From a virus (Duplodnaviria; Heunggongvirae; Uroviricota; Caudoviricetes): a DNA stretch of 64,000 nt. Position numbers and translations under genes: made by a program. This document shows, piece by piece, positions 12,077-40,776 of this stretch. How positions within the stretch are numbered: the first letter of the stretch is position 1; each line of letters starts with the position of its first letter. The notes under the pieces are model-generated. The model made no database searches, was not told where the DNA came from, and saw nothing but the letters and a program-made list of their open reading frames with translations. The stretch covers positions 22,292 to 86,291 of the IMG/VR virus record IMGVR_UViG_2795385758_000004; one strand, 5' to 3'.

Positions 12077-12219
12077 TGCGCCGCCAGCTGCTCATCTATC
12101 CGGCCCTCTACCTCGCCGTGTTCGCCGTCGCGTTCCGCCTCGGCTGGTGGGCATCGGACCAGCTTTCGTCCTACGCCCAAGAAATCGACCCACGTATCGA
12201 AAAGGAGTACACCCGATGA
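12073..12219 (+). CDS. small single-TM membrane protein preceding lysin A
   Basis: ATGATG start overlaps the upstream TGA, and its stop overlaps the lysA ATG (ATGA). 48 aa with hydrophobic core LLIYPALYLAVFAVAF. 47-aa homolog at 26252..26395. Confidence 0.4.
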   Translation: MMRRQLLIYPALYLAVFAVAFRLGWWASDQLSSYAQEIDPRIEKEYTR

Positions 12220-14044: not shown

Positions 14045-14177
14045 ATCAGTCCGCCCCCGCGCGAGGAGAGCGCGCTGGGACTCCCCACACCGTAGCGCTC
14101 CCTATCCATGGCGCCATCGAAAAAACTCCCCCTGAACTGCCCAAACCCTGTTATCCACAACCCCGAGAGGACCCGTC

Positions 14178-14405
14178 ATGCCCAACCCCATACCCCAAAA
14201 CGACACCACCCGCCTCATCGTCTACGCGGTCATGTTCATCGTCGTGTTCGCCGGAACCGTGGCCATGATCATCTCAGGGAAAATGGACGCCGCCAGCGGA
14301 CTGCAATGGGTGATTTCCATTGCCGGTCTCATCGGTACCGGCCTGCCGGGCCTCAAACTCGCCCAAGATATCCGCGGGAGCGGGCCGGACGGGTCGGCCG
14401 AGTGA
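14178..14405 (+). CDS. holin-like protein, two predicted TM helices
   Basis: 75 aa with GAGAGGA ribosome binding site. Two hydrophobic segments (LIVYAVMFIVVFAGTVAMII and WVISIAGLIGTGLPGL). Directly downstream of lysB. Confidence 0.55.
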   Translation: MPNPIPQNDTTRLIVYAVMFIVVFAGTVAMIISGKMDAASGLQWVISIAGLIGTGLPGLKLAQDIRGSGPDGSAE

Positions 14406-14653
14406 CCCCCGAGATAATCCAGGCGCTCGGCGTGGCCATCGCTGCGATTCTGACCGCGTGGCAAGCAATGACATCGCGGAAGGTTCGCGAACTCGAGGCC
14501 CGGATCAAGGCGGTCGAGAAGGAACGCGACCAGTTCCGCGACAAGCTCAGGGCCGCGGTGCGACACATCCGCGACTGGATGGGATGGGCCATGCACCACG
14601 CGCCCGGACAGGCCCCACCGCCGCTGCCGACAGAACTCGTCGACGAGGTGTAG
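14402..14653 (+). CDS. second lysis-cassette membrane protein (1 TM + coiled coil)
   Basis: GTG overlaps the upstream TGA (GTGA). One TM segment (ALGVAIAAILTAW) then a charged coiled-coil region. Homolog at 23753..24004. Confidence 0.5.
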   Translation: MTPEIIQALGVAIAAILTAWQAMTSRKVRELEARIKAVEKERDQFRDKLRAAVRHIRDWMGWAMHHAPGQAPPPLPTELVDEV

Positions 14654-15273: not shown

Positions 15274-16596
15274 TCACCCTACTGGGACTGTGGGAATGCG
15301 GTCAGTGGGTCCGAGCTGCGTTCCGGGGGTTGCGATCGGTATATCCCCTCGCGCGGCCGCAGTCGGTACGTGGAATTGGTTGACCAGTGACGCGTCGCCT
15401 TCCGAGTGCGACATGGGCAGTTGAAACAGCGGCCCGAATTCGTTGTGTCCCAGGCTTGGCATGTACTGAACCGCAGCCTGGTCGCCGTGGTAGATCTCCA
15501 GCGCAGGAAAGCTGGTGACCGTTCCGCCGACCTGAATGCCCGAATCGGTTGGCACTAGAGCTATATCGCCTTTCACGGTGTGAAATGACCCCTGGCCTGA
15601 TATCAGGCCGCCCGGTAGGAATCCATCCGCGGACTCGTATTGGATGTTGAGGGCATTACCCTTTTGCTTCACCGAGACATCAGGGTTGGTGCCTACTGCC
15701 ACTGCGCCAGTATCAGCATTGACCGACGGATTCTGGCGGTGGATCACCGCGCCGTTGTCGAAGTCTACGAGCATGCTCACGCGAGAGTGCTCGGGTGACG
15801 CATTCCGGTCGAAACCACGGTTATCGCCCCGGTCCTTGCCGAAGTTCCAGACCTTCTCACCGGGAATGAACGCGTTGATCTGCACCTGCCCTTTGCCCGG
15901 TTGCGGCTCAATCTTGGCAACCTTGATGTCGGACTCGACCCCCTTGTACTTAGGGTCATAGTTGTGCGCGTCCAGCATCGCCGCTGTGTGCCAGTCGGCG
16001 GGAGTTGTTGGCGCTCTTTTGAATACCTCTCGGAATGCAAACTCCTGGTTTTCGCGGGGCGACTTAATGCGGTCCAGCTCGCCGAGTATCCCGGTCATCG
16101 ACACCGGGAGTGACGATGGTTTCTCGTCACCGTCTGCGAGATTGACGGCGTGCGTCAGGGTGGCATCGGCGGCGTCACCGTCGGCCACGGCTCGCTTGAT
16201 CGCGTCGGTCAGCTCTGCCGCCTGCTGAGCCGCTTCCGGCTTGTCCGACAGCGGTTTTACCGCTCCGGTGGCGTAGTCGATCGAGAACTTGCCCCGTGCC
16301 TCGTTCTCGATCTTGCTCAGCTTGGCTTTGGCTGCCTCGAACTCGTCGGCCGCCTCGCGCATCTTGGCGGCCGCGGCCTGGCGCCCTTCGGAGTGGGTGC
16401 CGATGAGCTTGCCGAAGACTCCGAGCTCGGTGTCGGCGGTGGTGGCAGCGACCCCGGTCCAGTTGCCGACATGGGGCAGGTTGGGGAACGAGTTCTTGAT
16501 ATCGCTGAGCGAGGTCGCTTGCTTCTCCAGCGCCGCGGCGACATCGCGGATCATCTGGACGTCGACCTTCTTGAGATCCGCGGGGGTGAGTGACAT
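15274..16596 (-). CDS. polymorphic toxin with N-terminal WXG100-like (type VII secretion substrate) domain and an uncharacterised C-terminal domain
   Basis: 440 aa. N-terminal helical domain has NWTGVAAT, a W-x-G motif. Its start abuts the stop of the upstream WXG100 gene. The C-terminal roughly 250 aa matches nothing I recognise. Confidence 0.6.
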   Translation of the reverse strand: MSLTPADLKKVDVQMIRDVAAALEKQATSLSDIKNSFPNLPHVGNWTGVAATTADTELGVFGKLIGTHSEGRQAAAAKMREAADEFEAAKAKLSKIENEARGKFSIDYATGAVKPLSDKPEAAQQAAELTDAIKRAVADGDAADATLTHAVNLADGDEKPSSLPVSMTGILGELDRIKSPRENQEFAFREVFKRAPTTPADWHTAAMLDAHNYDPKYKGVESDIKVAKIEPQPGKGQVQINAFIPGEKVWNFGKDRGDNRGFDRNASPEHSRVSMLVDFDNGAVIHRQNPSVNADTGAVAVGTNPDVSVKQKGNALNIQYESADGFLPGGLISGQGSFHTVKGDIALVPTDSGIQVGGTVTSFPALEIYHGDQAAVQYMPSLGHNEFGPLFQLPMSHSEGDASLVNQFHVPTAAARGDIPIATPGTQLGPTDRIPTVPVG

Positions 16597-17908: not shown

Positions 17909-18808
17909 TCATGTTGATTGCCTCTCGATTGCGCTGGCTGAACGCCGGCGGGTCGCTGCCTTCTTGGTTCGAGGTGAAGCGCACAGCCGTGACGCCAGTG
18001 CGTCAACGCCAACCGCACCGCGCCGCGTGTTGTAGCCGAGGTAAACCATTGTGGTAGCAAGGCTTTGGTGCCCAAGGGCTTCTTGGATATACCGGATATC
18101 GACGCCAAGCTCGTTGAGCGCGGTTGCGAAGCGGTGCCGCAACGTGTGCAGCGTGTACGGCAGCTTGAGGCCCGCCAAGAAGTCCGAAGACACCACCGAC
18201 ACGTAGTTCGGAGTCACCTGCCCTCCAAGCGGACGGCGGAACATCGGTCCAGCCTGGCTGAGCTGAATGGCCAGCCGTGCCTGTACCTCCGGCGGGACAC
18301 GAACGATGCGTTGCTTTCCACCCTTGCCATGCACGGTCAGGAACGCGCCGCCATTCTCATCGGGGCGAAAGTCGGTGCGAGACATCTGCGCGATCTCCCC
18401 AGCGCGCAGACCGCAGTATCCGGCCAGTAGTAGCCACGCGTGCATGTCTGAGCCGGCGGGGGCGGCCAGCAATGCCAGGCGTAGGTGATCCTCGGGAATG
18501 GGACGCGGCATCCGGCGTTTGAGCTTGGGCTGTACGAGGCTGGCGGTTGGGTCCTCGTCGATGAGCCTGCCGCGGTGAGCCCATCTGTAGAACGCGCAGA
18601 CGTGCGAGGTGTAGGTCTGAATACTAGAAGGGCACACTCGAAGCGACCGTTGCCATGCTTCGAGCTGCGCGGGGGTTGCATCTAGGAGGGGGGTATCACC
18701 GAGCCAGCGCGCGAGCCGGTCTATCTGGCCGAGCCTGTGCTCGATCGTCTTCGGGGTCATGTTGCGCAGACGCAGGTGTGCTGTGAACTCGCTGAGGGTG
18801 TTTTCCAT
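17909..18808 (-). CDS. int: tyrosine recombinase / phage integrase (Xer-like, 299 aa)
   Basis: N-terminal SAM-like core-binding domain. C-terminal catalytic motifs HTLRHRFAT and ALGHQSLATTMVYL carry the R..H..R..Y signature. About 75-80% identical to integrase B. Confidence 0.85.
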   Translation of the reverse strand: MENTLSEFTAHLRLRNMTPKTIEHRLGQIDRLARWLGDTPLLDATPAQLEAWQRSLRVCPSSIQTYTSHVCAFYRWAHRGRLIDEDPTASLVQPKLKRRMPRPIPEDHLRLALLAAPAGSDMHAWLLLAGYCGLRAGEIAQMSRTDFRPDENGGAFLTVHGKGGKQRIVRVPPEVQARLAIQLSQAGPMFRRPLGGQVTPNYVSVVSSDFLAGLKLPYTLHTLRHRFATALNELGVDIRYIQEALGHQSLATTMVYLGYNTRRGAVGVDALASRLCASPRTKKAATRRRSASAIERQST

Positions 18809-18846: not shown

Positions 18847-19012
18847 TTGTTGCAGGTCAGATGCTTTCCTGAGCGGAAAACGTGACCCGAACTCGCGCGA
18901 CGCCCGATGCGCTTATACGGTTCATACTCACGAGTATGAACCGTATAAGTCCGCGTTCCGGCGCGCCAGCTCAGGTCACGGTTTCCGCTCGGGGAAGCAA
19001 CTGACCTGCAAC
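18847..19012. repeat. large imperfect palindrome between divergent integrase genes with perfect 18-bp core inverted repeat (candidate shared att core / recombinase site)
   Basis: Outer arms ctgacctgcaacaa are identical on both sides. Inner arms are about 85% identical. The core cttatacggttcatactc ac gagtatgaaccgtataag (18912..18949) is a perfect inverted repeat. Confidence 0.55.
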
Positions 19013-19056: not shown

Positions 19057-19947
19057 ATGTCACCTGTGAATAATGACACTGTCGTCTCAGAGTTTGCTCG
19101 TTATCTGAAGCTGAAGAACTTCACAGCTAAAACGATCGAGCACCGCTTGGGGCAGATTGCTAGATTAGCTAGATGGCTTGGGGAAACATCTTTGCTGGAG
19201 GCCACCCCGGAGCAGCTTGAGGCCTGGCAGGGTTCGTTGCGGGTGTGCCCGTCTAGCATCCAGACCTACACGTCGCATGTTTGCACCTTCTATCAGTGGG
19301 CCTACCGATGTGGGCGCACGAGCGAATACGTCGCAAAAGACTTGGTGCAACCGAAGATTCAGCGCCGTATGGCCCGGCCCATCCCCGAGGACCACTTGCG
19401 GATCGCGCTGACCGGCGCGCCTGTCGGGACTGACATCCATGCATGGCTGCTATTGGCCGGATACTGCGGTCTGCGCGCTGGGGAGATCGCGCAGATGTCA
19501 CGCAACGACTTTCGCCCCGATGAAGGCGGCGGCGCCTTCCTGACCGTGCACGGTAAGGGAGGGAAGCAACGCATCGTCCGAGTTGCCCCCGAGGTCATGC
19601 AACGTCTGGCAATTCAGCTGAGCCGACCCGGCACCATGTTCTGCCGTCCCCGCGGCGGGCCAGTCACACCCAACTACGTCTCGGTCGTGGGTGCGGAATT
19701 CCTAACCAATCTCGGGCTCCCGTACACGCTGCACACCCTGCGACACAGGTTCGCGACCGTGCTCGCCGACGAAGGCGCGGACCTCCGCGATATCCAGGAA
19801 TTGATGGGGCACGAGAGCCTGGCGACCACCATGCGGTACCTCGCTTACTCGACCCGACGTGGAGCGGCGTCCGTCGACTCGCTCGCGTCGCACTTGTGCC
19901 CCTCGCGGTCGTCGGCATCGAGAATGGAACAGCGCAGTCACAAGTAG
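19057..19947 (+). CDS. int: tyrosine recombinase / phage integrase (Xer-like, 296 aa)
   Basis: Homolog of integrase A with the same catalytic motifs (HTLRHRFAT, LMGHESLATTMRYL). Transcribed divergently from integrase A. Confidence 0.85.
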   Translation: MSPVNNDTVVSEFARYLKLKNFTAKTIEHRLGQIARLARWLGETSLLEATPEQLEAWQGSLRVCPSSIQTYTSHVCTFYQWAYRCGRTSEYVAKDLVQPKIQRRMARPIPEDHLRIALTGAPVGTDIHAWLLLAGYCGLRAGEIAQMSRNDFRPDEGGGAFLTVHGKGGKQRIVRVAPEVMQRLAIQLSRPGTMFCRPRGGPVTPNYVSVVGAEFLTNLGLPYTLHTLRHRFATVLADEGADLRDIQELMGHESLATTMRYLAYSTRRGAASVDSLASHLCPSRSSASRMEQRSHK

Positions 19948-20722: not shown

Positions 20723-21013
20723 ATGTCAGGTGAATTCGGCGTTGTGCCCGACGAGCTCATGCGGATCATCGAACGCATGGCAGAGGTTGAGCAGCGAGCC
20801 GAGGCGTCGATAGCGGCCATGGACACCGAGGTTCACAACCTGCACGCCACCTTCACAGGTGAAGCTGCCACGGCCCACACGCAGGCGCACGAGAAGTGGG
20901 CCAAGGGCGCCGAGCAGATGCGCGAAGCGCTCAAGGGCCTACGTAGCGCGAGCCACGCCGCGCACGGCAATTACACAGGCGCCGCTGCCAAGAACATGCA
21001 GAACTGGGCATAG
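20723..21013 (+). CDS. WXG100 family protein (EsxA/ESAT-6-like partner)
   Basis: 96 aa helical hairpin protein. Strong ribosome binding site GGGGGAGAAG. Carries KWAKG. Immediately downstream of the EsxB-like gene. Confidence 0.6.
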   Translation: MSGEFGVVPDELMRIIERMAEVEQRAEASIAAMDTEVHNLHATFTGEAATAHTQAHEKWAKGAEQMREALKGLRSASHAAHGNYTGAAAKNMQNWA

Positions 21014-21017
21014 CGCG

Positions 21018-22670
21018 ATGGCACCCCCGATTCATGTCGACCCGGTTGCCCTCGATGGCGCCGGTAGAACGGTCTCCAGCTCGGTGGGCGGGTGGGGCTC
21101 TGCGCTGTCGGCATTGCAGTCGGCGCTGTCGAGTTCGGCCGGTATGGGTGGGGATGACCCCGCCGGGATCGTGTTCGCGCGATCGTATGACTCGTCAGCC
21201 AAGGAACTCCTTGAGGCGATGGTGGACGTGTCCAACGGTGCCGGGCGGGCCGCTGACGGCATCCGGGCCTCGGCGACCAACTATTCGCGTGCCGAGGTGG
21301 CATCCAACATCGACGGCAAGGGCGGCGACCCACTGCCCGCCGCCTCACCCACTCCCGCGGTGAAGGCCGGGACCCCACCGTCTGCGGTGGGTAGCGATGT
21401 TGGCGACCCACCCGGTTGGTTCCTGGTGGAGCCGTTCATCGGAATGATTTGGCCCAATGGTGATTCGGCGAAGCTGCGCGCCGCTGGCGCCGCGTGGACG
21501 GCTGCCGGTGCGGCATTCACCGCTCAGCAGGCCGGACTAGCGGGGGCGCAGGCAACCGCGCAGGCCCAGCAGATCCCCGAAGGTCCCAAGATCGATAGCG
21601 CGTTCAAGACGATTGACGGTGCTGTCGGCGAGGTCGGCGGCATGTGCAGCACCATGGGCACCAAGCTCAACGACTACGCGGCCAAGATCGATACGGCGCA
21701 CGCATCGATACTGGACCTGTTGGCCCGCTTGGTAAATCCGCTGACCGGTGCCAAACAGGTCGTGGACTGGATTACCGGCGAAGACGACGACGAAATAAAG
21801 AAAATCGCCGCCGACATCCGCAACATCGTCAACCAGTTCAAGTCGGAAGTGCAGTCGCTCGCGCTGCTGCTGGCGCCGATCATCCAGGGCGCATCGATGG
21901 TCATCGACACCCTAAAGTCGTTGGTACAGATGCAGGTTGAGCTTTTCGGAAACGAGATATACAACACCGTGGCCCCGGTAGTGAACGCCACTGCATCCTT
22001 GGGGCAGGCCATGATCGACAACCCCGGCCAGACAATCCAGATGGCAGCTGGAGTCGGCATGATGGCGGTCGGCTACGACATGATGGCTGCGGCGGGCGTC
22101 GGTGAGGTCTTCACCGGTGGGGCCGCGACACCGGTCGCGGCGCCTGTCGCTGTTGCCGGGGCGGGCTTACTCGCTGGTGGCGCGGTCGTCGCCATACCGC
22201 CAGCCCTCGACCTCTCGAAAGAGGCTGCGGTCAACGGCGTGACGGTGATGGAGGCCCGGACTGGACGACCCGGCGAGGGCATCAACCGTGGCGACGACCG
22301 CGATTCCATCGGCACATTCACAGGCCGAGGCGGCACAGCCCGAGGATACGGTCGCCAACCAGAGGCAGAGGGTATCGATCGTTATCGGCGCGCTAACCCG
22401 GACGAATGGGTGAGCACTGAGCGTCGTAAGGCCAAGGTCGATGGGGTCGAGAATGGCCGCTACTACGATGGTTTGGCGCAGAAGTCAGACGGCACTTACA
22501 AAGGTATTGAGGTCAAATCCGGTGATGCCACACGCAATGCAGAGCAGCGAGCGTTCGACTCGGCCGTAACTCCAGAGAATCCGGCCTACGTTACGATCAC
22601 AAACAGGAGCGGGGAAGTCGAGACGGTGAAAGTCACTGAGGTAGAGGTAATTAAGGTGGCGGGCGAATGA
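21018..22670 (+). CDS. polymorphic toxin: N-terminal Esx/WXG-like secretion domain, Ala/Gly-rich linker, C-terminal putative PD-(D/E)xK-like nuclease domain
   Basis: ATG at 21018 lies 4 nt after the Esx gene stop. The track's upstream extension overlaps the Esx gene and was not used. The last roughly 120 aa are AT-richer and include SDGTYKGIEVKSGD, a D...ExK-like motif. The stop overlaps the start of the next gene. Confidence 0.6.
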   Translation: MAPPIHVDPVALDGAGRTVSSSVGGWGSALSALQSALSSSAGMGGDDPAGIVFARSYDSSAKELLEAMVDVSNGAGRAADGIRASATNYSRAEVASNIDGKGGDPLPAASPTPAVKAGTPPSAVGSDVGDPPGWFLVEPFIGMIWPNGDSAKLRAAGAAWTAAGAAFTAQQAGLAGAQATAQAQQIPEGPKIDSAFKTIDGAVGEVGGMCSTMGTKLNDYAAKIDTAHASILDLLARLVNPLTGAKQVVDWITGEDDDEIKKIAADIRNIVNQFKSEVQSLALLLAPIIQGASMVIDTLKSLVQMQVELFGNEIYNTVAPVVNATASLGQAMIDNPGQTIQMAAGVGMMAVGYDMMAAAGVGEVFTGGAATPVAAPVAVAGAGLLAGGAVVAIPPALDLSKEAAVNGVTVMEARTGRPGEGINRGDDRDSIGTFTGRGGTARGYGRQPEAEGIDRYRRANPDEWVSTERRKAKVDGVENGRYYDGLAQKSDGTYKGIEVKSGDATRNAEQRAFDSAVTPENPAYVTITNRSGEVETVKVTEVEVIKVAGE

Positions 22671-23752: not shown

Positions 23753-24004
23753 CTACACCTCGTCGACCAGCTCTGCTGGTAGTTCGGGTGTGGGCGTTTC
23801 GGGTCTGTGTTGTCGCGCCCAGCCCATCCATTCGCGGATGTGTCGGACGGCTGCGCGGAGTTTGTCACGATATTGGTCGCGCTGGCCTACGACGATGGCT
23901 AGTTGAGCTTCCAGGTCGCGGACTTTGCGCGAGGTGCGGGCTTGCCAGGCGCCCAGGATGGCGACGATGGCGCCGCCGACGGCTTGGATCTGGTCGGGGC
24001 TCAC
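23753..24004 (-). CDS. lysis-cassette membrane protein (1 TM + coiled coil), homolog of 14402..14653
   Basis: GTG overlaps the upstream TGA (GTGA). Contains AVGGAIVAILGAWQARTSRKVRDLEAQ. About 75% identical to the prophage A protein. Confidence 0.5.
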   Translation of the reverse strand: MSPDQIQAVGGAIVAILGAWQARTSRKVRDLEAQLAIVVGQRDQYRDKLRAAVRHIREWMGWARQHRPETPTPELPAELVDEV

Positions 24005-24297
24005 CGGCCGCTGCCCGCCACGAGCTTGAACAGGCTGGACGGTACGACCGCCTTGGTGGCCGAGGCGGTACCGGATCGGCCCAGCTTGATCGATGCCGCA
24101 GAGAAGATGAGCGATACCGCCAGCGTCCCGGCGCCGACATTGATACCGCTCTGCCAATCGATCTCGGTCAGGGCTGCGTTCACCGCGGCGTCGGCCAGGT
24201 TGGCGCCGACGATGAAGCCACCCGCGAACGTCTTGATAGCGCGCTCGGCAGCGTCAACGGCGGCGTCCTTGAGCCAGGGCGGGATGGTGATGTGCAT
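24001..24297 (-). CDS. holin-like membrane protein, unrelated in sequence to the holin of prophage A
   Basis: ATG at 24297 has a GAGAGGA ribosome binding site at the same spacing as in prophage A. 98 aa with hydrophobic glycine-zipper segments (GGFIVGANLADAAV, GAGTLAVSLIFSAA). Confidence 0.5.
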   Translation of the reverse strand: MHITIPPWLKDAAVDAAERAIKTFAGGFIVGANLADAAVNAALTEIDWQSGINVGAGTLAVSLIFSAASIKLGRSGTASATKAVVPSSLFKLVAGSGR

Positions 24298-24435
24298 GAC
24301 GGTCCTCTCGGCGGTTGGGTTGTGGATAACTGCGTTTGGGCAGTTCAGGGGGAGTTTTTTCGATGGCGCCATGGATAGGGAACGCTACGGTGTGGGGAGT
24401 CCCTGCGCGCTCTCCTCGCGCGGGGGCGGACTGAT

Positions 24436-25620
24436 CTACGCGGCTATGGCGGGGGTGCGGCTGGCCCAGTCGCGCACGTGCTGGATGGCGAGGCCGAGAT
24501 AGGTTTGGCCGGGCCAGACCTCGCGGTATTCGTATTGAATATGCGCGGCGGTCGGTGGGCTGGTGGTGACGAAACGCAGCGCGATCAAGGCGGCCTGCGC
24601 CGCGGCCGCGGGCCCGGTGAGCTTGTTGATATCGCCCCAGCCGAGTAGTCCCTGTAGACCGCCGAGCACCATGGGTAGGCCGAGCGCGGCGATACCGTTG
24701 GGGCCACCAGTGAGCGCGCCGAATATGGCGGGCAGCTCGACACCCAATGCCTTGGCGGCGATTTCGGGGATTTTGGGCAGGATGGCACCAGCGGCCCCGA
24801 GTGGGTCAGTGATCTGGAATGCGGTCACCATGTCGAAACAGTCGTCCATGATGTCCCCGACCACCCCGAGGGGGATGTTGCCGTACATGTCGCCAGGGTC
24901 GGTGAGCCAGCAGTGCCGGTAGTCGGTGACATCGCCGAACCGCCACGATGAAATACCCTGTCCCGCCAGGATTGGGCCGCCGTAGTAGCTGCCACCGTGG
25001 GGCCGGGTGGGGTCACCAAAGCTGAATGAGCACAGGTAGTTGTCCGGGTAGTGCTCGGCCAGCCACGCGCGGAACCGGGCGCCCGCGACCGCGCCGGCCG
25101 AGTATCCGCCGATGACAACCTTGATGTTGGGGTTGGCGCGGTAGCGCTCGGCGAAGATGCGTTGTGCGTCGGCCACGGCGATGTCGACGGCCTTGGCCAT
25201 CGAAATGTCGTTGATGCTGCCCGCGGCGCCGACCGGGAGTCCGCCCATGGTTGCGGCGAATTCGGGGTGCACTTCCTCAACGAGGTTGGCCACGGCCTGC
25301 ATGACGCGAGATACGTAGTCTTGGCCGATGACTCCTCCGGTGCCCCGGAACATTAGGCCCAGGTGGCGGTTGGCGGGCGGGGCCGGGGGCGCAATGCCCA
25401 GCGCGCGTAGGTCATCATCGGACACCTGCCCGGTGGGGATCTGGCCGGTGCGGCGCTGATATTCGGCGGCCCACAGGGCAGCGCGCGGCCCGAACTCGTC
25501 GGTGTCGCGGGGCAGCGGCCCCAGCAGCCGGGTGTACAGCGGCCCAAACCAGTCGTTCATCACGGCCCGCCACTGACGGACCGTTTCATTGCAGTCTCCG
25601 ATGCGGATCACTTGGACCAC
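24436..25620 (-). CDS. lysB: lysin B (mycolylarabinogalactan esterase)
   Basis: 394 aa with GGYSAGA, matching the GxSxG motif. About 95% identical to 12860..14044. Confidence 0.85.
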   Translation of the reverse strand: MVQVIRIGDCNETVRQWRAVMNDWFGPLYTRLLGPLPRDTDEFGPRAALWAAEYQRRTGQIPTGQVSDDDLRALGIAPPAPPANRHLGLMFRGTGGVIGQDYVSRVMQAVANLVEEVHPEFAATMGGLPVGAAGSINDISMAKAVDIAVADAQRIFAERYRANPNIKVVIGGYSAGAVAGARFRAWLAEHYPDNYLCSFSFGDPTRPHGGSYYGGPILAGQGISSWRFGDVTDYRHCWLTDPGDMYGNIPLGVVGDIMDDCFDMVTAFQITDPLGAAGAILPKIPEIAAKALGVELPAIFGALTGGPNGIAALGLPMVLGGLQGLLGWGDINKLTGPAAAAQAALIALRFVTTSPPTAAHIQYEYREVWPGQTYLGLAIQHVRDWASRTPAIAA

Positions 25621-26255
25621 ACCTTGTCGCGCAGCGTCATACCCTTCGATGCCCAGTCAGGATGTCCTGGCCCGAGTTGTTCGGCGATGTATTCAAGTAG
25701 CTTGCGGTCGGGAGCTTCTTGGACGAATTGCTGGTGTAGCACAATAGGATCGACCGCCGGGGGCTGCGCGGGCGCGTAGATGCCGAGGTATCCGGCGCGC
25801 AGCTTGGCGGCGAACGCGTCATTGCGCTTGTCGCCCTCGGGCCAGGCCATCTGGTAGTGCATCTCGTCGGGGCGCGACCAGTCGCGGCCCCAGAACACCG
25901 AGCCCTCGAACAGCGCCAGGCCCTTGCGGACCTTGGCCTGCGTGGCGGCATCCATCGTGTACCGCTGCCAGGGGTACTTGGGTGCCATCACGTCAACAGC
26001 GGTGCCTGCCAGGTGATTACTGTTGGCGACATCGTTTGTGGCCGACCAGCCCCACACGGGCGAGGTGATCTCTTCGACGTTGCGGTCATACCAGTACAGC
26101 CAGGCGCCCAGGATGGTCAGCGGGGCGCCCTTGCGCAGCGGTGCGGTATCGACGAGGTACAGCTCGTCGATGCGTACGATGTCGCATTCGTCCCGGTTGC
26201 ACATACGCCAACCGTTCTCGGACACCGTATTGCCGTATGCGGTGCGGAAACTCAT
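25608..26255 (-). CDS. lysA: lysin A, peptidase M15-like single-domain endolysin
   Basis: ATG at 26255 with AAAGGAAG ribosome binding site. SNHLAGTAVD ... DEMHY. About 90% identical to 12216..12872. Confidence 0.7.
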   Translation of the reverse strand: MSFRTAYGNTVSENGWRMCNRDECDIVRIDELYLVDTAPLRKGAPLTILGAWLYWYDRNVEEITSPVWGWSATNDVANSNHLAGTAVDVMAPKYPWQRYTMDAATQAKVRKGLALFEGSVFWGRDWSRPDEMHYQMAWPEGDKRNDAFAAKLRAGYLGIYAPAQPPAVDPIVLHQQFVQEAPDRKLLEYIAEQLGPGHPDWASKGMTLRDKVWSK

Positions 26256-26395
26256 CGGGTGTACTTCCTTTCGATGCGGGGGTCGATCTCTTGGGCGTAG
26301 GAGGACAGGCGGTCGGATGCCCACCAGCCCAGCCGGAATGAGATGGCGGCAAGTGCGGAGTAGAAGGCCGAGTGCTTGAGAAGCTGGCGGGCCAT
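26252..26395 (-). CDS. small single-TM membrane protein preceding lysin A
   Basis: 47 aa. MARQLLKHSAFYSALAAISFRLGWWASD is the homolog of 12073..12219. ATGA overlap with lysA. Confidence 0.4.
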   Translation of the reverse strand: MARQLLKHSAFYSALAAISFRLGWWASDRLSSYAQEIDPRIERKYTR

Positions 26396-33358: not shown

Positions 33359-35089
33359 TTAGAGCGGGTATCTCCGTCGCGGCGTGCCCGAGGCGATGAT
33401 CTTGGAGTCGGCGTTGCCGCCCTCGATCGAGACCTTCACGAAATACGGCTGCGCGGGATTGCCCGGTGATTTCGGTGGTATCGCCGCGTTCTTGGAGAAG
33501 CGGCCCTTGAGGTACTTGTACAGCGGGCCTTGCGGCGGGGTGATGCCGAACTGCGACTTGATCTGATCGGCGAACGCCGTACCGTTCATGCCCGCAAAGC
33601 TCATGAACTTCTCGATCGCCTCCTGGAACAAATCGAGTTCCTGCGGTGAGGGCGGCACCGAGGTTAGGTCTTTCACCAAGGTGGTGTGCACGCGCGGATC
33701 GGTGCGCAAAAACACCACCTGATTGGGTAGCAGCGGCCCGAATTCGACATATTGGTCCGAGCCGGGCCCGTCGTAGATTTTGACCTTGGTGAACGGCCCG
33801 AACAGCACGTAGTCGTCGTACATGTCCTGATCACCGATGTTGATGCGCTTGAGGAACCCGGTTTGCGCCACGGCAGCGTTATCGCCCGCGGCCAGCTTGC
33901 GGATAGCGGACGGCGTTGCCTGGCTGATCACCGCACCGGCAGCGAACATGCCGTTGCCGACGCCCCGATGCGCTGCCCCCAGAGGCGAGCCCGTGCCGGT
34001 TTCGGTGACCGACAAGATCTCCATGTCGTTGCGCAGCACGCGGAACGTGCGCGGGTGATCCTCGGTGCCGCACACCAGTGTGAACTTCTCGCCCGGCAGC
34101 GGCCCGATGGGGATGGCCAGCGGCCAGCTGCGCAAGGTGGTCTCAACGAAGTTGATCGTGTAGTACAGGCGCAGGTATCCGGCGCCGTACTCGACGAACA
34201 CCCCGTCGCCCGCCCAGCTGCCGTCAGGATTGCGGTTCATGCGCGCGCCCAGGATGTTTCGGCCCGAGTCGGGCACCGACCACTCCTGAAATCCCCCGTG
34301 CACCTGGGAGACGACCTGGTTATCGGTATCGGTGGCGAAATCGGGCCAGGGCCCGTTGATGACCCGGCGCCATTGGGTGCCAAACCCGTGTTCGGGGTCG
34401 TCCCACCAACGCATTTGGTCGTTGTAGGACGTGCAGAACCCGCCGCCGGGGCCGCTGTAGCGCTGCGGAACCGCGCCGAGATCCTTGGTTTGGCGATGAT
34501 CGGTCGCGAAGGTGTCGGTAATCGCGTCGTAGGTGAACGCGAAGGAGTCCGCGTGGTCGAACGACTTCCAGGTGCCGGTGTCGGCCTGTAGCCGCAACGT
34601 GGCTTTCTGCGAGGTGCCCTTGCGCATAGCCGAAACCGGATCGGGTTGCCCGCCTTGGAACCAGCGCACGTCGGCCCACCAGTACCCGGCATCGTGATCG
34701 AAAAAGTCCAGCCGGGAACACTTGATGGCGTCCAGCGAATCGATCAGATGCCGATAGACCCGGCGCGTGCGCGCGGCGTTGCGGCCCCGGCACTTGACCG
34801 TGAGCTTGACCTCGACCGGATCCAAAAACGCGTCGATATGGTGAACGCCATCCTCGGTCGCACCCTTCTGGGTGACGTGCTTCCATGGCGCGATGAGGCC
34901 TTCGAGGTCGATCAAATGCACGGCTTCTGGCGCCGTGTACGGGTCGGGAATCGCGTATCCGCCGATCATGAACATCTCGACCGACCCGTCAAAGGCGGTC
35001 AGGCGCATCATGGGCTTTTCGCCGTTGACGAGGTGATACCAGCCATGGGGTGTGACGGGGTTGGCCGGATAGCGGATCGTCACGGTCAC
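33359..35089 (-). CDS. minor tail protein (distal tail protein-like)
   Basis: GTG at 35089 overlaps the TMP stop (GTGA). Homolog of 3764..5167. The longer N-terminal extension in the track overlaps the TMP and is rejected. Confidence 0.6.
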   Translation of the reverse strand: MTVTIRYPANPVTPHGWYHLVNGEKPMMRLTAFDGSVEMFMIGGYAIPDPYTAPEAVHLIDLEGLIAPWKHVTQKGATEDGVHHIDAFLDPVEVKLTVKCRGRNAARTRRVYRHLIDSLDAIKCSRLDFFDHDAGYWWADVRWFQGGQPDPVSAMRKGTSQKATLRLQADTGTWKSFDHADSFAFTYDAITDTFATDHRQTKDLGAVPQRYSGPGGGFCTSYNDQMRWWDDPEHGFGTQWRRVINGPWPDFATDTDNQVVSQVHGGFQEWSVPDSGRNILGARMNRNPDGSWAGDGVFVEYGAGYLRLYYTINFVETTLRSWPLAIPIGPLPGEKFTLVCGTEDHPRTFRVLRNDMEILSVTETGTGSPLGAAHRGVGNGMFAAGAVISQATPSAIRKLAAGDNAAVAQTGFLKRINIGDQDMYDDYVLFGPFTKVKIYDGPGSDQYVEFGPLLPNQVVFLRTDPRVHTTLVKDLTSVPPSPQELDLFQEAIEKFMSFAGMNGTAFADQIKSQFGITPPQGPLYKYLKGRFSKNAAIPPKSPGNPAQPYFVKVSIEGGNADSKIIASGTPRRRYPL

Positions 35090-38000
35090 ATCCCCGGCCC
35101 GGAGTTGCGGGCTTGCTGATGGAATGCGATATCGCGGCCGGTGCCGTCCTCGGTGGCGCGGTTGTTGGTGACGTGGATGTTTGTGTCGCCCGCCTTGACT
35201 GGGCCGCCTTGGGCGTTCGGGTCGCCCTGATTGGGGTTTGGTGGCGCGGTCGCCTTGCCGGCCACGTTCGGGATCGCCGGGGCAGCACCAGCGACACCAC
35301 CGAGGATCTTGGTCAGCCAGCTCTTGTTGGCCAGCTCCGAGCCCGCGGTCGGCAGCACCGTATCCATCAAGCCCTGCACCCCGATACCTGCGGCCTGTGC
35401 ACCGAACTGAATCGCCCTGTTGGCCAGCTTGATTCCGGTCTGCGCTGCCTGCCCGGCACCTGGGGCGAAGATGTCGGCCGCCGAGGCGGCCATCCCGATC
35501 GCGGTATCGATGGTGCCGCCGGGAGTGATACCGACCCCGCCTGCACCCGAACCGGTCGCCGGTTCCACACCACCAATGCGCGTCGATGACGGGCTCCACG
35601 CCTGCGCAGGCCCGGTAGCCCCACCCCACCCGCCGCCAGCGGCCGGAATACCCGCTGTCAGGGCAGGATTGGTCAACGTCGGATCGCTCATCACCGGATC
35701 GGTGACCGCTAAGCCAGGACCGGCCGTCTTGGGGTAGAGCGCCCGATAATCGACCGTGGGCCCGATCGGCTGCGGCGACGGTGCGCTCGACGTGCCCGAA
35801 CCAAGGGGCATGTAGTACTGCTTGGGGAACTGCTTATCGAGGGCACCGGCCGCCGAGCCTCCCAGCATCGGGCCGTGTCCTCCACCAGATTCGAAATTCA
35901 TGCCGTTGGGCAGCGTCGCGGCCATGTGGCCCTGCTGCCCCGGCAGGGGATTCACACCGACATTGAAGGCCCCCGGCTGATATCCGGGCAGGAAACCGAG
36001 CTTGGCAGCGCTGGCATCGGTGGCGAACGCAGTGGTATCGAACAGCCGTGCCGGTGAGGACTTCCCGTCGCGCAGCACCTCCACCAAATCCGAGACGGCA
36101 CCCGAGCAGTCGGCCAGCCCGTTCTGCAGATCAGATGCCGGAGCGTACTTTCCGCCACGCGCGGCCAATGCATACATCGCGGCGAGGTTGGGGGTTACAC
36201 CCTGTTGCAGCGCCATCGGCCCGATGCCCGCCATGGCAACGTCCTGGGCAACACCTGTGTACTGCGGCCCAAACACGCCCTGGGCGGCCAGGATGCCCAT
36301 AGCGCCGTATCCGCCCTTGGACGGGTTGAGTTGGCTGACCGCGCCGAGCTGGCCAAGGATCGGGGCCGCCGCCATATTGGCCAGGAACTTGGTCAGATTC
36401 TCGGCCAGCCCCGGCAGGCCCTTGGAGATCCCGAAATCCTTGTCTAGTGCGGCACCGATCTGGCCCATGCCGTCGGCGAGGCCCTGCGTAGAGCTCTCCA
36501 GCTTCTTCCACGTACCTTGCTGCGCCTCAGCCAGTTTCATCTGCGCCGAAACGTACGAGCGTTCGGCGTCGGCAACCTGGTTGCGCGCTCGCAGTAGTGC
36601 GTCCTGATCGGCGTTACCCTGCTGCTCCAGCCGGATCAACGCAATGCGGTCTTGCTCCAGAGAGTTCTTGGCCCGGATCGCCGACGACTCAGCGTCATAC
36701 ACCCGCATGGGGTCGACCTCGTAGCGACCGAGACCGGGCCCGCCCTTGGGAGACGAAACGAGCACCCCGGGCGCTGCGGTGGGCGCCGTGGCCAATCCTG
36801 GCGGCATGGCAACGGGCTTTGACTCCACCGACCAAAGACTCGGATCGATCGGGGCCTTGGTCTTGTCGTCGTCCCCGGCCGGTGCGATCGGCTTCCTGTC
36901 GCCTGCCTGCGGACCGTTATCGACAGCATTGCCGCGCTGGGCATCCGGCGGGGGCAGGGCGGTCCCGGGGGCGAGCGCGCTGCCGAGCAGTGTCCGTGCT
37001 GAGTTGTCGCCGGGTGCCGGAGGCAGGACGGTTGAGCCCGCGCCCGGCGCACCGGGAAGGGTGTTGGCCAGGATGTCGGTACCGGGATGCGTACCGCCGA
37101 GCGGTGCAGCGTATTGCGGCGGTGGCGGCGAGGAACTGAACAGATCCTTGATCATCGTCGGGATGTCCCTGATGACAGGCAGATCCACAAACCAATCCGA
37201 GATACTGGTCTTTAGGTCGGTGAACCACTGATCGACCGTCTTGGTTGCGCTTTCCCATTCGGACTTGAACGTCTCCGTCGCGGTCTTAGTCGATCGCTGC
37301 GAGGTGTCTTGCAGATCCTTGAACTGGTTTTTAGCCGGGTCGAGGTCGAGTTTGTTGACAGCATCGCCCATGTCCTCCCACTGCGTGCCGAAAAGGCGTT
37401 GCCACACAAGGGCTTGCTGAACCGGGTCATCTAGATTGCGTAGTCCGGTGAGCACCGCTGCAAATGCTTGGTGTGCTTGCTCGCCGCCTGCGGAGAAGCG
37501 CCGTCCCATCTCGTCGGCGTTGAACCCCAGCGCCTCGAAACCTTCCTTGGTTGACTTGCTGCCGTCGACCGCGCGGATGCTGAATTCCTTGAGGGAGTCG
37601 GCCACCTTGTCGGTGTCGCGGGCACCGCCCTCGATGCCTTGCTTGAGCAGCGTCATTGTCTCGCTGCCGGTCAGGCCGAGCTTGCGGAATTGCGTGGAGT
37701 ACTCGCCGATAGAGTCGAGCCAGTCGCCGGTTACGTCCAGGCCCTTCTGTGAGCCCGCGGTGATGATGTCGAGCGCTTCGGTGACGCTATTGGCAAGGCC
37801 GGTGCGCATGAGTTGGGTCGCGGAGTGCGCGAGCTCTTGCGGGGTCTTCTCGACGACCTGCGCCACACCTTGGAGCTGCTGAATCGTGTACTGAATTTCG
37901 TCATCGGGCGAGTTGGGCTTGATCAGGTTGTTGCGCAGGGCCGCTTGAGCGACGCTGAGGTTGTCCGCTACGGAGGCGCCGAAGTTGTTGGCGTAGGACT

Positions 38001-38712
38001 GACCGGCAGCCTTGGCGTAATTGCCCATCGAGGTGTCATCCAGACCCATGCGGCCCTGGAACAACTTGGTGGTGGCCGTGGTGGCCATACCTTCGGCAAT
38101 GGCGTTGGAGAGCCGACTTCCGACGAGGATGCCTACGGCGGTCAAACCCAACAGGGCCGCGCCGATTGGCCCGCCAGCGGTGCCGAGTCGGGCGATCGAG
38201 GCCGCGCTGCTCACCCCGTGGGTGAATCCGCCTGAGAACCCATTGCCCATGTCGCGGCCGAGCTGGGCGGCCTGGCCAGCCTGGGCGCGCATGCCGTCAA
38301 CAAGGTTGGTGTTGTTGCGTCGGCTCGCCTCGTCGGCAGCTTCTTGATACTCGCGGTATGCCCGCGTTGCGTCCCGGACAGCACGAGCCTCGGCGCGCCG
38401 CGCGTCGTTGACTTTCTCGGTCTGGCGGATGATCCGTGCGCCGTCGGCGTCGCGGTCGCGTAGCCGCTGTAGTTCGGATTCCTCGGACTTGAGTTTCCCG
38501 ACGGCCGATGCTGCCTTGTCGTAGGCATCAGAAGCCCTGTCGCCCATGCGCTTAAGGGACTTCTCGACATCCTTGGAGCTGCCCGCCAGCGCGTTGGCGA
38601 AATCGCGGCCGGCATCCTTACCCGCGTTGCCGAACGTGCGGGTGGCGTCATCGGCGACCCGCTTCCACGACCGATGATCAGCGGCGGCACCGATGGGTAT
38701 CTGCACGGACAT
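35086..38712 (-). CDS. tape measure protein (1208 aa)
   Basis: Very long ORF between the chaperones and the minor tails. Ala/Gln-rich coiled coil and glycine-rich hydrophobic segments. Confidence 0.85.
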   Translation of the reverse strand: MSVQIPIGAAADHRSWKRVADDATRTFGNAGKDAGRDFANALAGSSKDVEKSLKRMGDRASDAYDKAASAVGKLKSEESELQRLRDRDADGARIIRQTEKVNDARRAEARAVRDATRAYREYQEAADEASRRNNTNLVDGMRAQAGQAAQLGRDMGNGFSGGFTHGVSSAASIARLGTAGGPIGAALLGLTAVGILVGSRLSNAIAEGMATTATTKLFQGRMGLDDTSMGNYAKAAGQSYANNFGASVADNLSVAQAALRNNLIKPNSPDDEIQYTIQQLQGVAQVVEKTPQELAHSATQLMRTGLANSVTEALDIITAGSQKGLDVTGDWLDSIGEYSTQFRKLGLTGSETMTLLKQGIEGGARDTDKVADSLKEFSIRAVDGSKSTKEGFEALGFNADEMGRRFSAGGEQAHQAFAAVLTGLRNLDDPVQQALVWQRLFGTQWEDMGDAVNKLDLDPAKNQFKDLQDTSQRSTKTATETFKSEWESATKTVDQWFTDLKTSISDWFVDLPVIRDIPTMIKDLFSSSPPPPQYAAPLGGTHPGTDILANTLPGAPGAGSTVLPPAPGDNSARTLLGSALAPGTALPPPDAQRGNAVDNGPQAGDRKPIAPAGDDDKTKAPIDPSLWSVESKPVAMPPGLATAPTAAPGVLVSSPKGGPGLGRYEVDPMRVYDAESSAIRAKNSLEQDRIALIRLEQQGNADQDALLRARNQVADAERSYVSAQMKLAEAQQGTWKKLESSTQGLADGMGQIGAALDKDFGISKGLPGLAENLTKFLANMAAAPILGQLGAVSQLNPSKGGYGAMGILAAQGVFGPQYTGVAQDVAMAGIGPMALQQGVTPNLAAMYALAARGGKYAPASDLQNGLADCSGAVSDLVEVLRDGKSSPARLFDTTAFATDASAAKLGFLPGYQPGAFNVGVNPLPGQQGHMAATLPNGMNFESGGGHGPMLGGSAAGALDKQFPKQYYMPLGSGTSSAPSPQPIGPTVDYRALYPKTAGPGLAVTDPVMSDPTLTNPALTAGIPAAGGGWGGATGPAQAWSPSSTRIGGVEPATGSGAGGVGITPGGTIDTAIGMAASAADIFAPGAGQAAQTGIKLANRAIQFGAQAAGIGVQGLMDTVLPTAGSELANKSWLTKILGGVAGAAPAIPNVAGKATAPPNPNQGDPNAQGGPVKAGDTNIHVTNNRATEDGTGRDIAFHQQARNSGPGM

Positions 38713-38726
38713 GGTTCACCTCCTGA

Positions 38727-39597
38727 TCATTGGTCGCCAAATACGTCATCTAGCAACTCTTCTCGCGCCGACTCGATGAATTCGTTTTCAGCGGAGTCAA
38801 GTTCGTGCTGTCTGCGAGAATCCAGCGGCGATGAGTACTTGGTGTACATGTATTCGTGCGGGGTGCCCGCGTACTGGCTGGCCCGGTATGCCGCGAGCTC
38901 GTTGTGTGTCTCGGCGATGATCTTCTGCATGACCGTCCAGTCGCCGTCGCGCCCAAACGGCGGCGGCGCATGGGTTTTGAACTCTGAGTCTTCGGGCAGC
39001 TGGTGGATCAGCGACAGTAGTTGGCGGCTGGAAAGCACCAGGGCGCCGCGCTCATCGCGGGTGCCCTGGTGCCAATCAGCGATGCGCACACCGCGAAAAC
39101 GAAGATCGGCCTCGATCGCATTGGGCCAACGGCACCACAGCGCTACTGCCTCAATTACTTTTGGAGTCGATCTTTGTCCGCTCCTCCAGCTGGCGCTGCA
39201 TCACCTTCCAGTGCGTATCGATCTGGCCGGGAACACCGCCCGCGGCGAGGAACTTGGCGTAGATGTCCTCACCCATGAGTGCGATGCACAGCTGCTCGTC
39301 AGGGTCGTAATCCTTGCCGTCCTTGAGATACGGATAGACGTTCTGCTCGATGGTCTTGCCGTCGATGAAAGGATGATCGACGGTTTCCTTGTCGAGGGCT
39401 TTCATGTCCCGCTGGTAGTCGCGGTACCGCTTGCGCTGCTCGGTATCGAGAAACGCCGGGTTGGGAAGCTCCCACATCTCGCCGTCGCCGAGATCAAAGG
39501 GCACACCTGCCATGAATCCGAGGTGATCGGCGGCCTGCTCGCGTGCCTTTCTGGGGTCGACGGGGTGTAGAACGTCCTTGGTGTCTTCGGAGCTCAT
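38727..39597 (-). CDS. tail assembly chaperone GT fusion requiring a +1 (or -2) frameshift near 39157..39163
   Basis: The -1 frame is closed by TAA. The +1 frame is open from 39200 down to 38727. Its product aligns with the prophage A T segment, with IEADL at the identical distance (14 aa) from the slip-site Lys. Confidence 0.45.
39151..39597 (-). CDS. tail assembly chaperone (G)
   Basis: ATG at 39597 with GAAAGGAAC ribosome binding site. 148 aa immediately upstream of the TMP region. Ends ...TKIDSKSN*. Confidence 0.7.
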   Translation of the reverse strand: MSSEDTKDVLHPVDPRKAREQAADHLGFMAGVPFDLGDGEMWELPNPAFLDTEQRKRYRDYQRDMKALDKETVDHPFIDGKTIEQNVYPYLKDGKDYDPDEQLCIALMGEDIYAKFLAAGGVPGQIDTHWKVMQRQLEERTKIDSKSN

Positions 39598-39696
39598 GAT
39601 TGTTCCTTTCGGGCTGGTGGGCTTGGGGTTTCGGGCTGGAATGGGGGTGGGGCTCACCTGGCGGGCGCAGCCCGACGCCCGCCAGGTGAGGGTTCA

Positions 39697-40776
39697 TCAG
39701 GCGATGGTCGCGGCGGCAGACTTCGGGGTGTAGACCGAAGCGCCGTTGGTGCCGGTCACCTTCACGCGGAACTTGGTTGCACCGGCTGCCACCGTCTTGA
39801 CCTTGACCGTGGTGTTGCCACCGGACGAGACCGCGGGCCCATCGAGCTCGGCGGGCAGCCAGGTGGTCCCGTCATCGACGGTGCTTTCGGCGGCGAAGGT
39901 GAACGGATCGCCAGCGCCCGTGGGGTCGGCGAATACGATCGAGGCCTTACCGGCGGCACCGGGGGTGACCGTCGGCGGGGTGTTCGACACCTTGGGGGCG
40001 CCCTGAATCGTGGTCCAGCCCTTGCCGCCGACCCATTCGCCGTCCAGGCCGGGAATCAGGATGCCCGGGTTGCGCGGATCGGGGATCAGGAAGAACGGGT
40101 CAGGTTCGAGCGAGAACTCCAGCTCGTTGGCGTCGGCGTCTTCCGTGTCCATCTTGGCCGCGCCGATCTTGGTCAGCTTGCACAGGGGGATGGGTTCGAC
40201 GGTGTACAGCTTGCCGCCGGCCCGGGACCGTGCGCGCACCAAAAGCAGCTGGCGGGGAACGAAATCGGCTTCCAGCGGGGTGCCCACGAAATAGTCGCCT
40301 TGGCCCGGTTCTGCCACGAGCAGGTTGCCGTCCTCATCCTGCAGCGGAACGTTATTGCGCAGGGCCTTGACGACAGGGTTCAAGGTCTCGATCGGGGTGA
40401 ACTTCACCGTCTTTTCGATCTTGGTGATGTCCTTCTCGATCGGGTAATTCGACTGCAAGATCTCCAGCGGGCTGACATCAATGTTCGGCTCACGCTCGGG
40501 GCCGCCAGTCTTGGTGTTGGCGCCGAGGAACAGCCACCCCTGGTTGGGCTCGGGGTTGTTGACCCAGTACCCGCCGACCTTGCGGCGGGCGAACAGGTCC
40601 GCGCGCAGCTTGCCATCCTTGGCCAGCGGGTTGAAGAGATGCGGGCTGATATCAGTGGCCGCGCCGCGATAGTCGCGCGCTAATACGGCAACGAGCGGGC
40701 CTCGGATAGCGAAACGGCTATCGGTGTCGGTGAATCCGCCGACGCTCCAGTCAGCGCCGGTTTCGGGTTGCGTCAT
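39697..40776 (-). CDS. major tail protein
   Basis: 359 aa. Position immediately upstream of the chaperones. Ig-like C-terminal domain. Confidence 0.75.
   Translation of the reverse strand: MTQPETGADWSVGGFTDTDSRFAIRGPLVAVLARDYRGAATDISPHLFNPLAKDGKLRADLFARRKVGGYWVNNPEPNQGWLFLGANTKTGGPEREPNIDVSPLEILQSNYPIEKDITKIEKTVKFTPIETLNPVVKALRNNVPLQDEDGNLLVAEPGQGDYFVGTPLEADFVPRQLLLVRARSRAGGKLYTVEPIPLCKLTKIGAAKMDTEDADANELEFSLEPDPFFLIPDPRNPGILIPGLDGEWVGGKGWTTIQGAPKVSNTPPTVTPGAAGKASIVFADPTGAGDPFTFAAESTVDDGTTWLPAELDGPAVSSGGNTTVKVKTVAAGATKFRVKVTGTNGASVYTPKSAAATIA

Follow-up and report, generated by a model that had tools for sequence, protein, structure and literature searches.

A Probable G/GT Tail Assembly Chaperone Pair Entering the +1 (Equivalently, -2) Frame in a Mycobacterium abscessus Prophage

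Results

Tail Assembly Chaperone Genes of Prophage B

The DNA analyzed here, referred to as the window, is a 64,000-nucleotide (nt) stretch of the IMG/VR virus record IMGVR_UViG_2795385758_000004 (positions 22,292 to 86,291 of that record) and holds two prophages, A and B. Our subject is the G-T region of prophage B (39597-38727), which the evidence supports as the G/GT tail assembly chaperone pair of a Mycobacterium abscessus prophage, with the longer product GT reached by entry into the +1 (equivalent to the -2) frame. The prophage B genes G and T and their neighbors all lie on the minus strand. Gene G (39597-39151), the short tail assembly chaperone, is an open reading frame (ORF) of 148 amino acids (aa) that runs from ATG 39597, preceded by the ribosome-binding-site-like GAAAGGAA, to TGA 39153-39151, and its translation ends in ...KIDSKSN. 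The protein matches the tail assembly chaperone family phrog_621 (E 1.1e-43) as well as phrog_978 (E 8.4e-27). Its final codons are GAC (39168-66), TCC (39165-63), AAA (39162-60), AGT (39159-57) and AAT (39156-54), followed by TGA (39153-51).

At the end of G, TAA 39157-39155 closes the -1 frame (CAA AAG TAA), while the +1 frame is open between TGA 39203-39201 and TGA 38729-38727. The upstream one of these stops (39201-39203, minus strand) sets the 5' limit of the region in which a shift can take place in prophage B. An earlier note on this DNA, made from the sequence alone, had concluded that GT of prophage B needs a +1 (or -2) shift, and this conclusion was borne out: the -1 frame is closed by TAA, and the open +1 frame encodes a conserved T segment without a start of its own. 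The note was right about the open frame but gave its length as 155 codons; it comprises 157 codons, 16 before and 141 after the G stop. The T segment (38727-39158, minus strand) has 143 aa, begins with VIEAVALWCRWPNAIEADL, ends in FGDQ before the stop at 38729-38727, and matches phrog_978 (E 4e-34) along with other tail assembly chaperone families. In the phrog_978 profile, which has 288 positions, the first half is matched by G and the second half by T. The predicted length of GT is 146 + 143 = 289 aa.

No ATG, GTG or TTG is present in the +1 frame between the stop at 39203-39201 and GTG 39089, the first start codon of this frame, and the conserved ALWCRWPNAIEADL segment sits upstream of that codon. 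Period-3 conservation of the +1 frame sets in directly after the G stop. In the annotations of near-identical prophages and their hosts, a 120-aa "hypothetical protein" starts at the internal GTG (39087-39089, minus strand). Relatives have ATC, GTC, CTC, ACC or ACG at the position of this codon, and the comparison suggests that GTG 39089 is probably not a real start.

The surrounding gene order is major tail protein, G, T and tape measure protein, with two overlapping ORFs between the flanking genes. The upstream neighbor, the major tail protein gene (39697-40776, minus strand), matches phrog_476 (E 1.5e-72), and the downstream neighbor, the tape measure protein gene (35086-38712, minus strand), matches phrog_2337 (E 4e-294). 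Pfam gave no match for any of the four proteins, G and T of both prophages. The gap between the stop of the major tail gene and G (~39653-39690, minus strand) contains a perfect GC-rich hairpin of 16 bp with a 6-nt loop and without a U tract (Delta G -38.3 kcal/mol, z -3.5 versus shuffles). This hairpin may act as an attenuator or mRNA-stability element that sets the ratio of the major tail protein to the downstream gene products.

Conservation of the Proposed Shift Site

The proposed +1 shift site is AAA AGU at 39157-39162 (minus strand), with an A4 run at 39162-39159. Its conservation was followed in 75 related loci taken from IMG/VR, GTDB genomes and GenBank phages, in which G identity to the window went down to ~40%. 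T was in the +1 frame in 74 of these 75 loci, and in none of them was it in frame with G or absent. The loci contained 52 distinct junction regions, 48 of which carried AAA AGT NNN TGA. The codons around AAA AGT are free to vary, with GAC or GAT, then TCC, TCG, CCC or CCG before it, and at least 10 forms of NNN after it. In the relatives L041, L043, L044, L066 and L067 the +1 frame opens just 7 codons before the G stop, and the shift is therefore confined to the last ~7 codons of G. Within these 7 codons the sole conserved slip-prone element is A_AAA followed by GU. The earlier note had placed the shift at cc-AAA-AGU, a placement that this result supports.

Away from the site, AAA accounts for 17% of the Lys codons and AGT for 4.8% of the Ser codons in genes of the family. 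In the genes of the window AGT occurs 3.2 times per 1000 codons, which makes it the rarest Ser codon and the sixth rarest sense codon, and among ~12,900 window codons the in-frame pair AAA AGT is found only at the G site. A tRNA in the P site can re-pair after a +1 move, from AAA to AAA on the A4 run of prophage B and from UUU to UUC in two of the exceptions described below. The UGA stop of G, two codons past the slip Lys (39151-39153, minus strand), is invariant in an alignment of 25 sequences; its T is the wobble position of a variable +1-frame codon, yet does not change in the close family.

The four exceptions differ in kind. L069 carries AAA AGC. In L058 (CCC TTT CGT) and L073 (CAG TTT CCT) UUU_C replaces the A run while the junction length is kept, and the A-site codon is again rare and U-ending (CGT, CCT); judged from these sequences, tRNA-Phe would gain a G:C pair by the +1 move. 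At the same place L071, which is shorter than its relatives by 2 nt, shows a canonical -1 site, C_CCA_AAA, then TAG, with T in the -1 frame; it looks like a natural conversion from +1 to -1. It derives from a contig of a metagenome-assembled genome (CAZASR010000244.1, labeled uncultured Devosia) that encodes a G homologue of the same family; the junction is at about locus position 520-535. With 4085 bp and 6.5x coverage, the contig is short and thinly covered, and its assignment to Devosia is doubtful, given that every other relative is mycobacterial.

No stimulatory RNA structure emerged at the site. RNAalifold on 25 diverse junctions returned 0 conserved pairs, the junction sequence of the window folded no better than shuffles (z -0.21), and Rfam gave no real match at the site, its sole match being a chance miRNA (E 0.94). 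The lack of an RNA structure is usual for +1 sites. A terminator-like match at 39117-39104 was discarded, as it lies within the coding sequence of IEADLRFR, is not conserved and occurs at chance rate. A Shine-Dalgarno (SD)-like stimulator of the prfB type was also absent: the nearest candidate, GGAGGAG, ends 18 nt upstream of AAA, which is too far, and is not conserved (GAACGG in L054, GCGAAG in L042).

Distribution and Annotation of Related Sites

The G-T region of prophage B is 99.3-99.5% identical to that of five M. abscessus prophages (prophiGD43A-3, prophiGD33-1, prophiCCUG48898T-1, prophi104-2, and prophiGD51-1) and 90% identical to that of phage phiGD57-1. The site is already known and routinely annotated, with hundreds of mycobacteriophages carrying the annotation, and it is common in this group, not rare. 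The earlier note had regarded the +1 geometry as rare and striking, a view that has to be given up, as the identical motif is present in M. abscessus prophages besides this one and in phages that we assign to clusters F, I, J, N, and O, and joined coding sequences (CDS) are found in GenBank. The joined tail assembly chaperone CDS of phiGD57-1, QueenHazel and Sbash have a span of 1 modulo 3, which means a shift of +1 or -2.

Annotated fusions were found by exact-sequence lookup of modeled junction variants. A homologous-protein search with the fused GT gave 15 matches, with no annotated fusion among them. At this Lys, GenBank holds +1 fusions (...DSK/V..., the slash marking the junction) for Babsiella (AER48392.1) and Sbash (YP_009124667.1), and -2 fusions (...DSKK/V...) for QueenHazel (QFG15023.1) and phiGD57-1 (QPO17253.1); the Xula fusion is equal in length (331 aa). 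Brujita, Babsiella and QueenHazel are taken by us as cluster I. The GT fusion of the present prophage, written as either +1 or -2, was absent from a collection of ~15 billion proteins, and the sole local novelty is that GT of this prophage is unannotated.

In phage Tweety T is likewise in the +1 frame, and the identical motif, GAC TCG AAA AGT, lies 54 nt before the end of the G gene. The GenBank fusion of Tweety, ABQ86081.1, is the +1 version, joined exactly after this Lys, and the 90% protein cluster of ABQ86081.1 has 211 members, many of them 311-aa cluster F fusions. The 2007 Tweety paper describes a "-2" frameshift ~50 bp from the gene end (PMC2884959), and this position is where the AAA AGT motif sits. 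The announcements of Fulbright (cluster N; PMC7975880) and Karhdo (cluster F1; PMC10793310) give -2 and +1, respectively. The accessible part of the PRFect paper contains no tally of forward versus backward tail chaperone shifts.

Other phage groups carrying the T domain, which is present in ~680 phage records, were sampled by tblastn. The same motif and a +1-frame T recur in Firecracker, Jamie19, Baka and prophiGD90-1, and Inca has a -1 site, C_CCA_AAC, at the equivalent D-P-N position. We take Firecracker, Jamie19, Baka, and Inca to belong to clusters O, N, J, and E, respectively; these letters come from general knowledge, as the outputs give genera only. In the sequences compared, only one sub-family has its UGA close to the site.

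Two kinds of record at related junctions deserve mention. In OR464709.1 (mika) and OR464711.1 (ridax), whose match to the window is about as good as that of Brujita and QueenHazel, the junction is labeled "Frameshift due to deletion around ..."; these records wrongly treat the programmed shift as a mutation. P0001, an NCBI protein labeled Aduncisulcus paluster (276 aa, from a 1050-bp contig), joins G and T in frame, has 67% identity to the GT of the window and lacks ~45 residues around the junction (...FLAAGGVP/VRIADWHQG...). Its source is probably mycobacterial prophage DNA that contaminates a eukaryote assembly, and the gap either a deletion or an assembly artifact.

The Counterpart in Prophage A

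In prophage A, at the left end of the window, gene G (498-845, plus strand) encodes 115 aa, ends in CTG GGA AAC TAG and matches the tail assembly chaperone families phrog_17338 and phrog_10551. Its -1 heptamer G_GGA_AAC lies at 836-842 (plus strand) in the canonical X_XXY_YYZ register, as the earlier note had stated when it named GGGAAAC. The -1 frame opens only at 830, 6 nt before the heptamer, and the G stop is at 843-845, leaving a shift window of 16 nt. The T segment in the -1 frame (843-1225, plus strand) starts with the first -1-frame codon after the heptamer, reads LVSLFRLLAEHGDEIEADL..., and matches phrog_5813 (E 6.4e-31) and phrog_978 (E 1.1e-11). It is followed by the tape measure gene (1251-3764, plus strand), which has tape measure matches. 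The G-T region of prophage A is 100% identical to that of prophi62-3 and prophi108-1, in which two tail assembly chaperone CDS are annotated.

The T segments of the two prophages had been called clearly homologous, with IEADL exactly 14 residues after the slip-site Lys in both. Homology is visible only in the shared PHROG profiles 978, 5813, and 393 and in the motif alignment; pairwise BLASTP of the two T segments, in contrast, was not significant (E 0.068). The spacing also holds, as IEADL starts 15 residues past the slip-position residue in both prophages, with 14 residues between. However, this residue is Asn and not Lys in prophage A, because the zero-frame codons there are Gly-Asn and it is tRNA-Asn that slips, from AAC to AAA. 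Pairwise BLASTP of the G proteins of A and B was not significant, and the two G parts fall in different families.

Arrangement of the Two Prophages

The two prophages meet right end to right end at 18912-18949, inverted and with no host DNA between them. The match to prophi62-3 ends at 18941 and that to prophiCCUG48898T-1 at 18920, an overlap of 22 bp centered on a perfect 18-bp palindrome with arms at 18912-18929 and 18932-18949 and a 2-nt spacer. Two different prophages share a palindromic attachment (att) junction. It is adjoined by genes for tyrosine integrases of ~297 aa at 17909-18808 (minus strand) and 19057-19947 (plus strand), which form inverted repeats of 73% identity.

The lysis cassettes at 12076-14653 and 23753-26395 are likewise inverted repeats, with five blocks of 74-93% identity, the longest of 1405 nt at 92%, and the two endolysin-family proteins (394 aa, phrog_102) show 93% identity to each other. 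These repeats could be substrates for inversion or exchange between the prophages. Between each lysis cassette and each integrase lie stretches (15274-16596, minus strand; 20859-22670, plus strand) that are annotated as WXG100/polymorphic toxin and immunity cassettes in the matching prophage records; the two long ORFs at these coordinates had no PHROG match.

Discussion

Prophage B contains a short chaperone gene in syntenic position between the major tail and tape measure genes, a T segment of the same family in the +1 frame without an independent start, and a junction conserved at the nucleotide level. From these patterns we infer a ribosomal shift, forward by one base rather than back by two, with AGU as the slow codon and only a minority of ribosomes involved. 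Most ribosomes would read G through to UGA and release the 148-aa chaperone, while a minority would shift frame at CC-AAA-AGU and go on into T, producing the 289-aa GT (...KIDSK/VIEAVALW...). At the moment of shifting, tRNA-Lys(UUU) would sit on AAA 39162-60 in the P site while the rare AGU in the A site is decoded slowly. Peptidyl-tRNA-Lys would then re-pair one base downstream, on AAA 39161-59 of the A4 run, and Val-tRNA would read GUA 39158-56. By analogy with lambda gpG/gpGT, the GT protein would connect the tape measure protein with the major tail protein in tail assembly. Taken as a whole, we consider this account, with a +1 shift at AAA-AGU as the mechanism, to be probably correct.

We also lean, with somewhat less assurance, toward a wider claim: GA(C/T)-(T/C)CN-AAA-AGU may be a true sense-codon ("hungry codon") +1 ribosomal signal, kept in M. 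abscessus prophages and in phages that we assign to at least five clusters (F, I, J, N, O), that appears to interconvert with the -1 site C_CCA_AAA/C at the same position via insertions or deletions of 1-2 nt.

Several points weigh against a +1 shift with AGU as the slow codon. No protein-level evidence for this chaperone family was found in the searchable literature. Two papers label the equivalent event of clusters F and N as -2 (PMC2884959, PMC7975880), and the GenBank fusions of phiGD57-1 and QueenHazel, together with the 331-aa Xula fusion, are written as -2 (...DSKK/V...). AGU shares one tRNA with the common codon AGC and is therefore only a candidate slow codon; L069 even carries AGC in its place. 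The GU of AGU also begins the conserved +1-frame Val codon, and conservation of GU is therefore not purely a shift signal. Moreover, no stimulatory element was found at the junction among RNA structures, SD-like sequences or Rfam families.

One alternative is that the ribosome moves back by 2 nt on this A4 run, so that a second Lys is incorporated and the product reads ...DSKK/VIEAV. The records QPO17253.1 (from phiGD57-1, 90% identical to the window in nucleotides) and QFG15023.1 (from QueenHazel) fit "-2 after AAA" exactly, the Xula fusion has the same 331-aa length, and the Tweety and Fulbright papers describe the event as -2. The annotations are inconsistent, however, as Babsiella, Sbash, Tweety and many of the 311-aa cluster F fusions are joined as +1 at the same site. 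Re-pairing also speaks against a backward move: the A run is just four bases long, the codon 5' of it varies (TCC, TCG, CCC, CCG) so that pairing 2 nt upstream fails, and tRNA-Lys would land on CCA or CGA, or tRNA-Phe on CCU or AGU in the variants, with one paired base at best. We regard the -2 shift as unlikely. Still less can be said for a +1 shift at the stop codon itself, in the manner of prfB or antizyme, for which UGA would have to occupy the A site and the variable codon the P site, and the junction would read ...DSKSN/EAV. The earlier note had offered a nearby stop in the A site as an alternative to AGU, and the invariance of UGA two codons after AAA in the close family, in spite of its T being a free wobble position of the +1 frame, is in keeping with it. 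But the stop is two codons past AAA, and hence outside the A site while Lys-tRNA holds the P site; the codon before the stop is AAT, GAT, ACT, CGT, TCA, AGC, CGA, TCT or CTT, which have no re-pairing in common; no SD-like element is close upstream; and Tweety, Firecracker, Jamie19, Baka, and prophiGD90-1, covering clusters F, N, O, and J and a prophage, keep AAA AGT although their stop comes only after a further 13-17 codons, so that the mechanism does not require a nearby UGA. We regard this alternative as very unlikely.

Transcriptional slippage, in which RNA polymerase drops one A (or adds two) and the mRNA itself puts G and T in frame, would yield the same protein as the +1 shift, and the site is a homopolymer. 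Known transcriptional slippage sites need about 6-9 identical bases, whereas the run here has only 4 nt, reduced to 3 T's in L058 and L073, and the conserved rare A-site codon would have no role; we hold this explanation to be highly improbable. The last alternative dispenses with recoding: T would be a separate protein of 120 aa initiated at the internal GTG 39089, or the frame break would be a sequencing error or the mark of a pseudogene. Gene 52 of prophiCCUG48898T-1 and many records of the NCBI Prokaryotic Genome Annotation Pipeline (PGAP) do call the 120-aa protein from this GTG. Yet the GTG is not conserved, ~23 strongly conserved +1-frame codons (VxEAxALWxRWPxEIExDL) lie upstream of it without a start codon, and the same geometry recurs in isolated phages (among them Brujita, Che9c, Sbash, and Tweety) as well as in dozens of independent assemblies, so that we give hardly any credence to this view. 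A sequencing error is excluded by the recurrence of the geometry and of the A4 run in these independent assemblies and phage genomes, and the resequencing proposed in the earlier note to exclude a 1-nt homopolymer error is unnecessary.

For the window itself, the practical outcome concerns annotation. In near-identical M. abscessus prophage and host records, the 120-aa product called from GTG 39089 under the name "hypothetical protein" or "Gp14" almost certainly represents T within the 289-aa GT. Public records and papers disagree between +1 and -2 on a very common mycobacteriophage site, and the comparative data favor +1. If the hungry-codon +1 reading is true, the "-2" wording of the papers and of some GenBank records would be incorrect, and the site would be among the most widespread natural bacterial +1 sites that need neither a stop codon nor an SD-like stimulator. 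A defined +1 signal in mycobacteria would be of interest to recoding specialists and useful to phage annotators; the view of tail assembly would stay as it is.

Comparison With Known Systems

With lambda gpG/gpGT, prophage B shares the gene position and a short chaperone with a C-terminally extended form, as does prophage A; the T segments of A and B have PHROG profiles in common, and their EIEADL motifs are equally far from the shift. In lambda and prophage A, however, the shift is -1 and proceeds by tandem slippage on an X_XXY_YYZ heptamer, while prophage B has no such heptamer and its -1 frame is closed. The tail chaperone shift of phage Mu, a -2 shift reportedly described by Xu, Hendrix and Duda in 2004, has the same net frame change and is probably the precedent for the "-2" wording in mycobacteriophages; unlike a shift of that kind, the sequence here allows no re-pairing 2 nt upstream.

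Shifts of +1 with a slow A-site codon are represented by yeast Ty1 (CUU-AGG-C) and Ty3 (GCG-AGU-U) and by E. coli prfB (CUU-UGA-C). As in Ty1 and prfB, the P-site tRNA of prophage B would be able to re-pair at +1; as in Ty3, a rare A-site AGU is followed by a +1-frame GUN Val codon; and a downstream structure is needed neither in these systems nor here. The present site differs from them in its bacterial phage context, in having an A-site sense codon, unlike prfB, in the lack of an SD-like stimulator 3 nt upstream, and in being known from sequence alone.

Among the mycobacteriophages, gp12/gp13 of Tweety (cluster F, genus Cheoctovirus) has GAC TCG AAA AGT, a +1-frame T and a homologous junction (K/V-M-E-A-x-W). 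The differences are that G of Tweety runs 17 codons past the site versus 2 here, that the G body is only remotely similar, and that the Tweety paper speaks of -2. Brujita, Babsiella, QueenHazel, Che9c, Sbash, and phiGD57-1 belong to the same G family (40-90% identity), with a ...DSKS-x-UGA end and a +1-frame T. Their records are split between +1 (Babsiella, Sbash) and -2 (QueenHazel, phiGD57-1, and Xula by its length), and nothing essential distinguishes the site of this group from that of prophage B.

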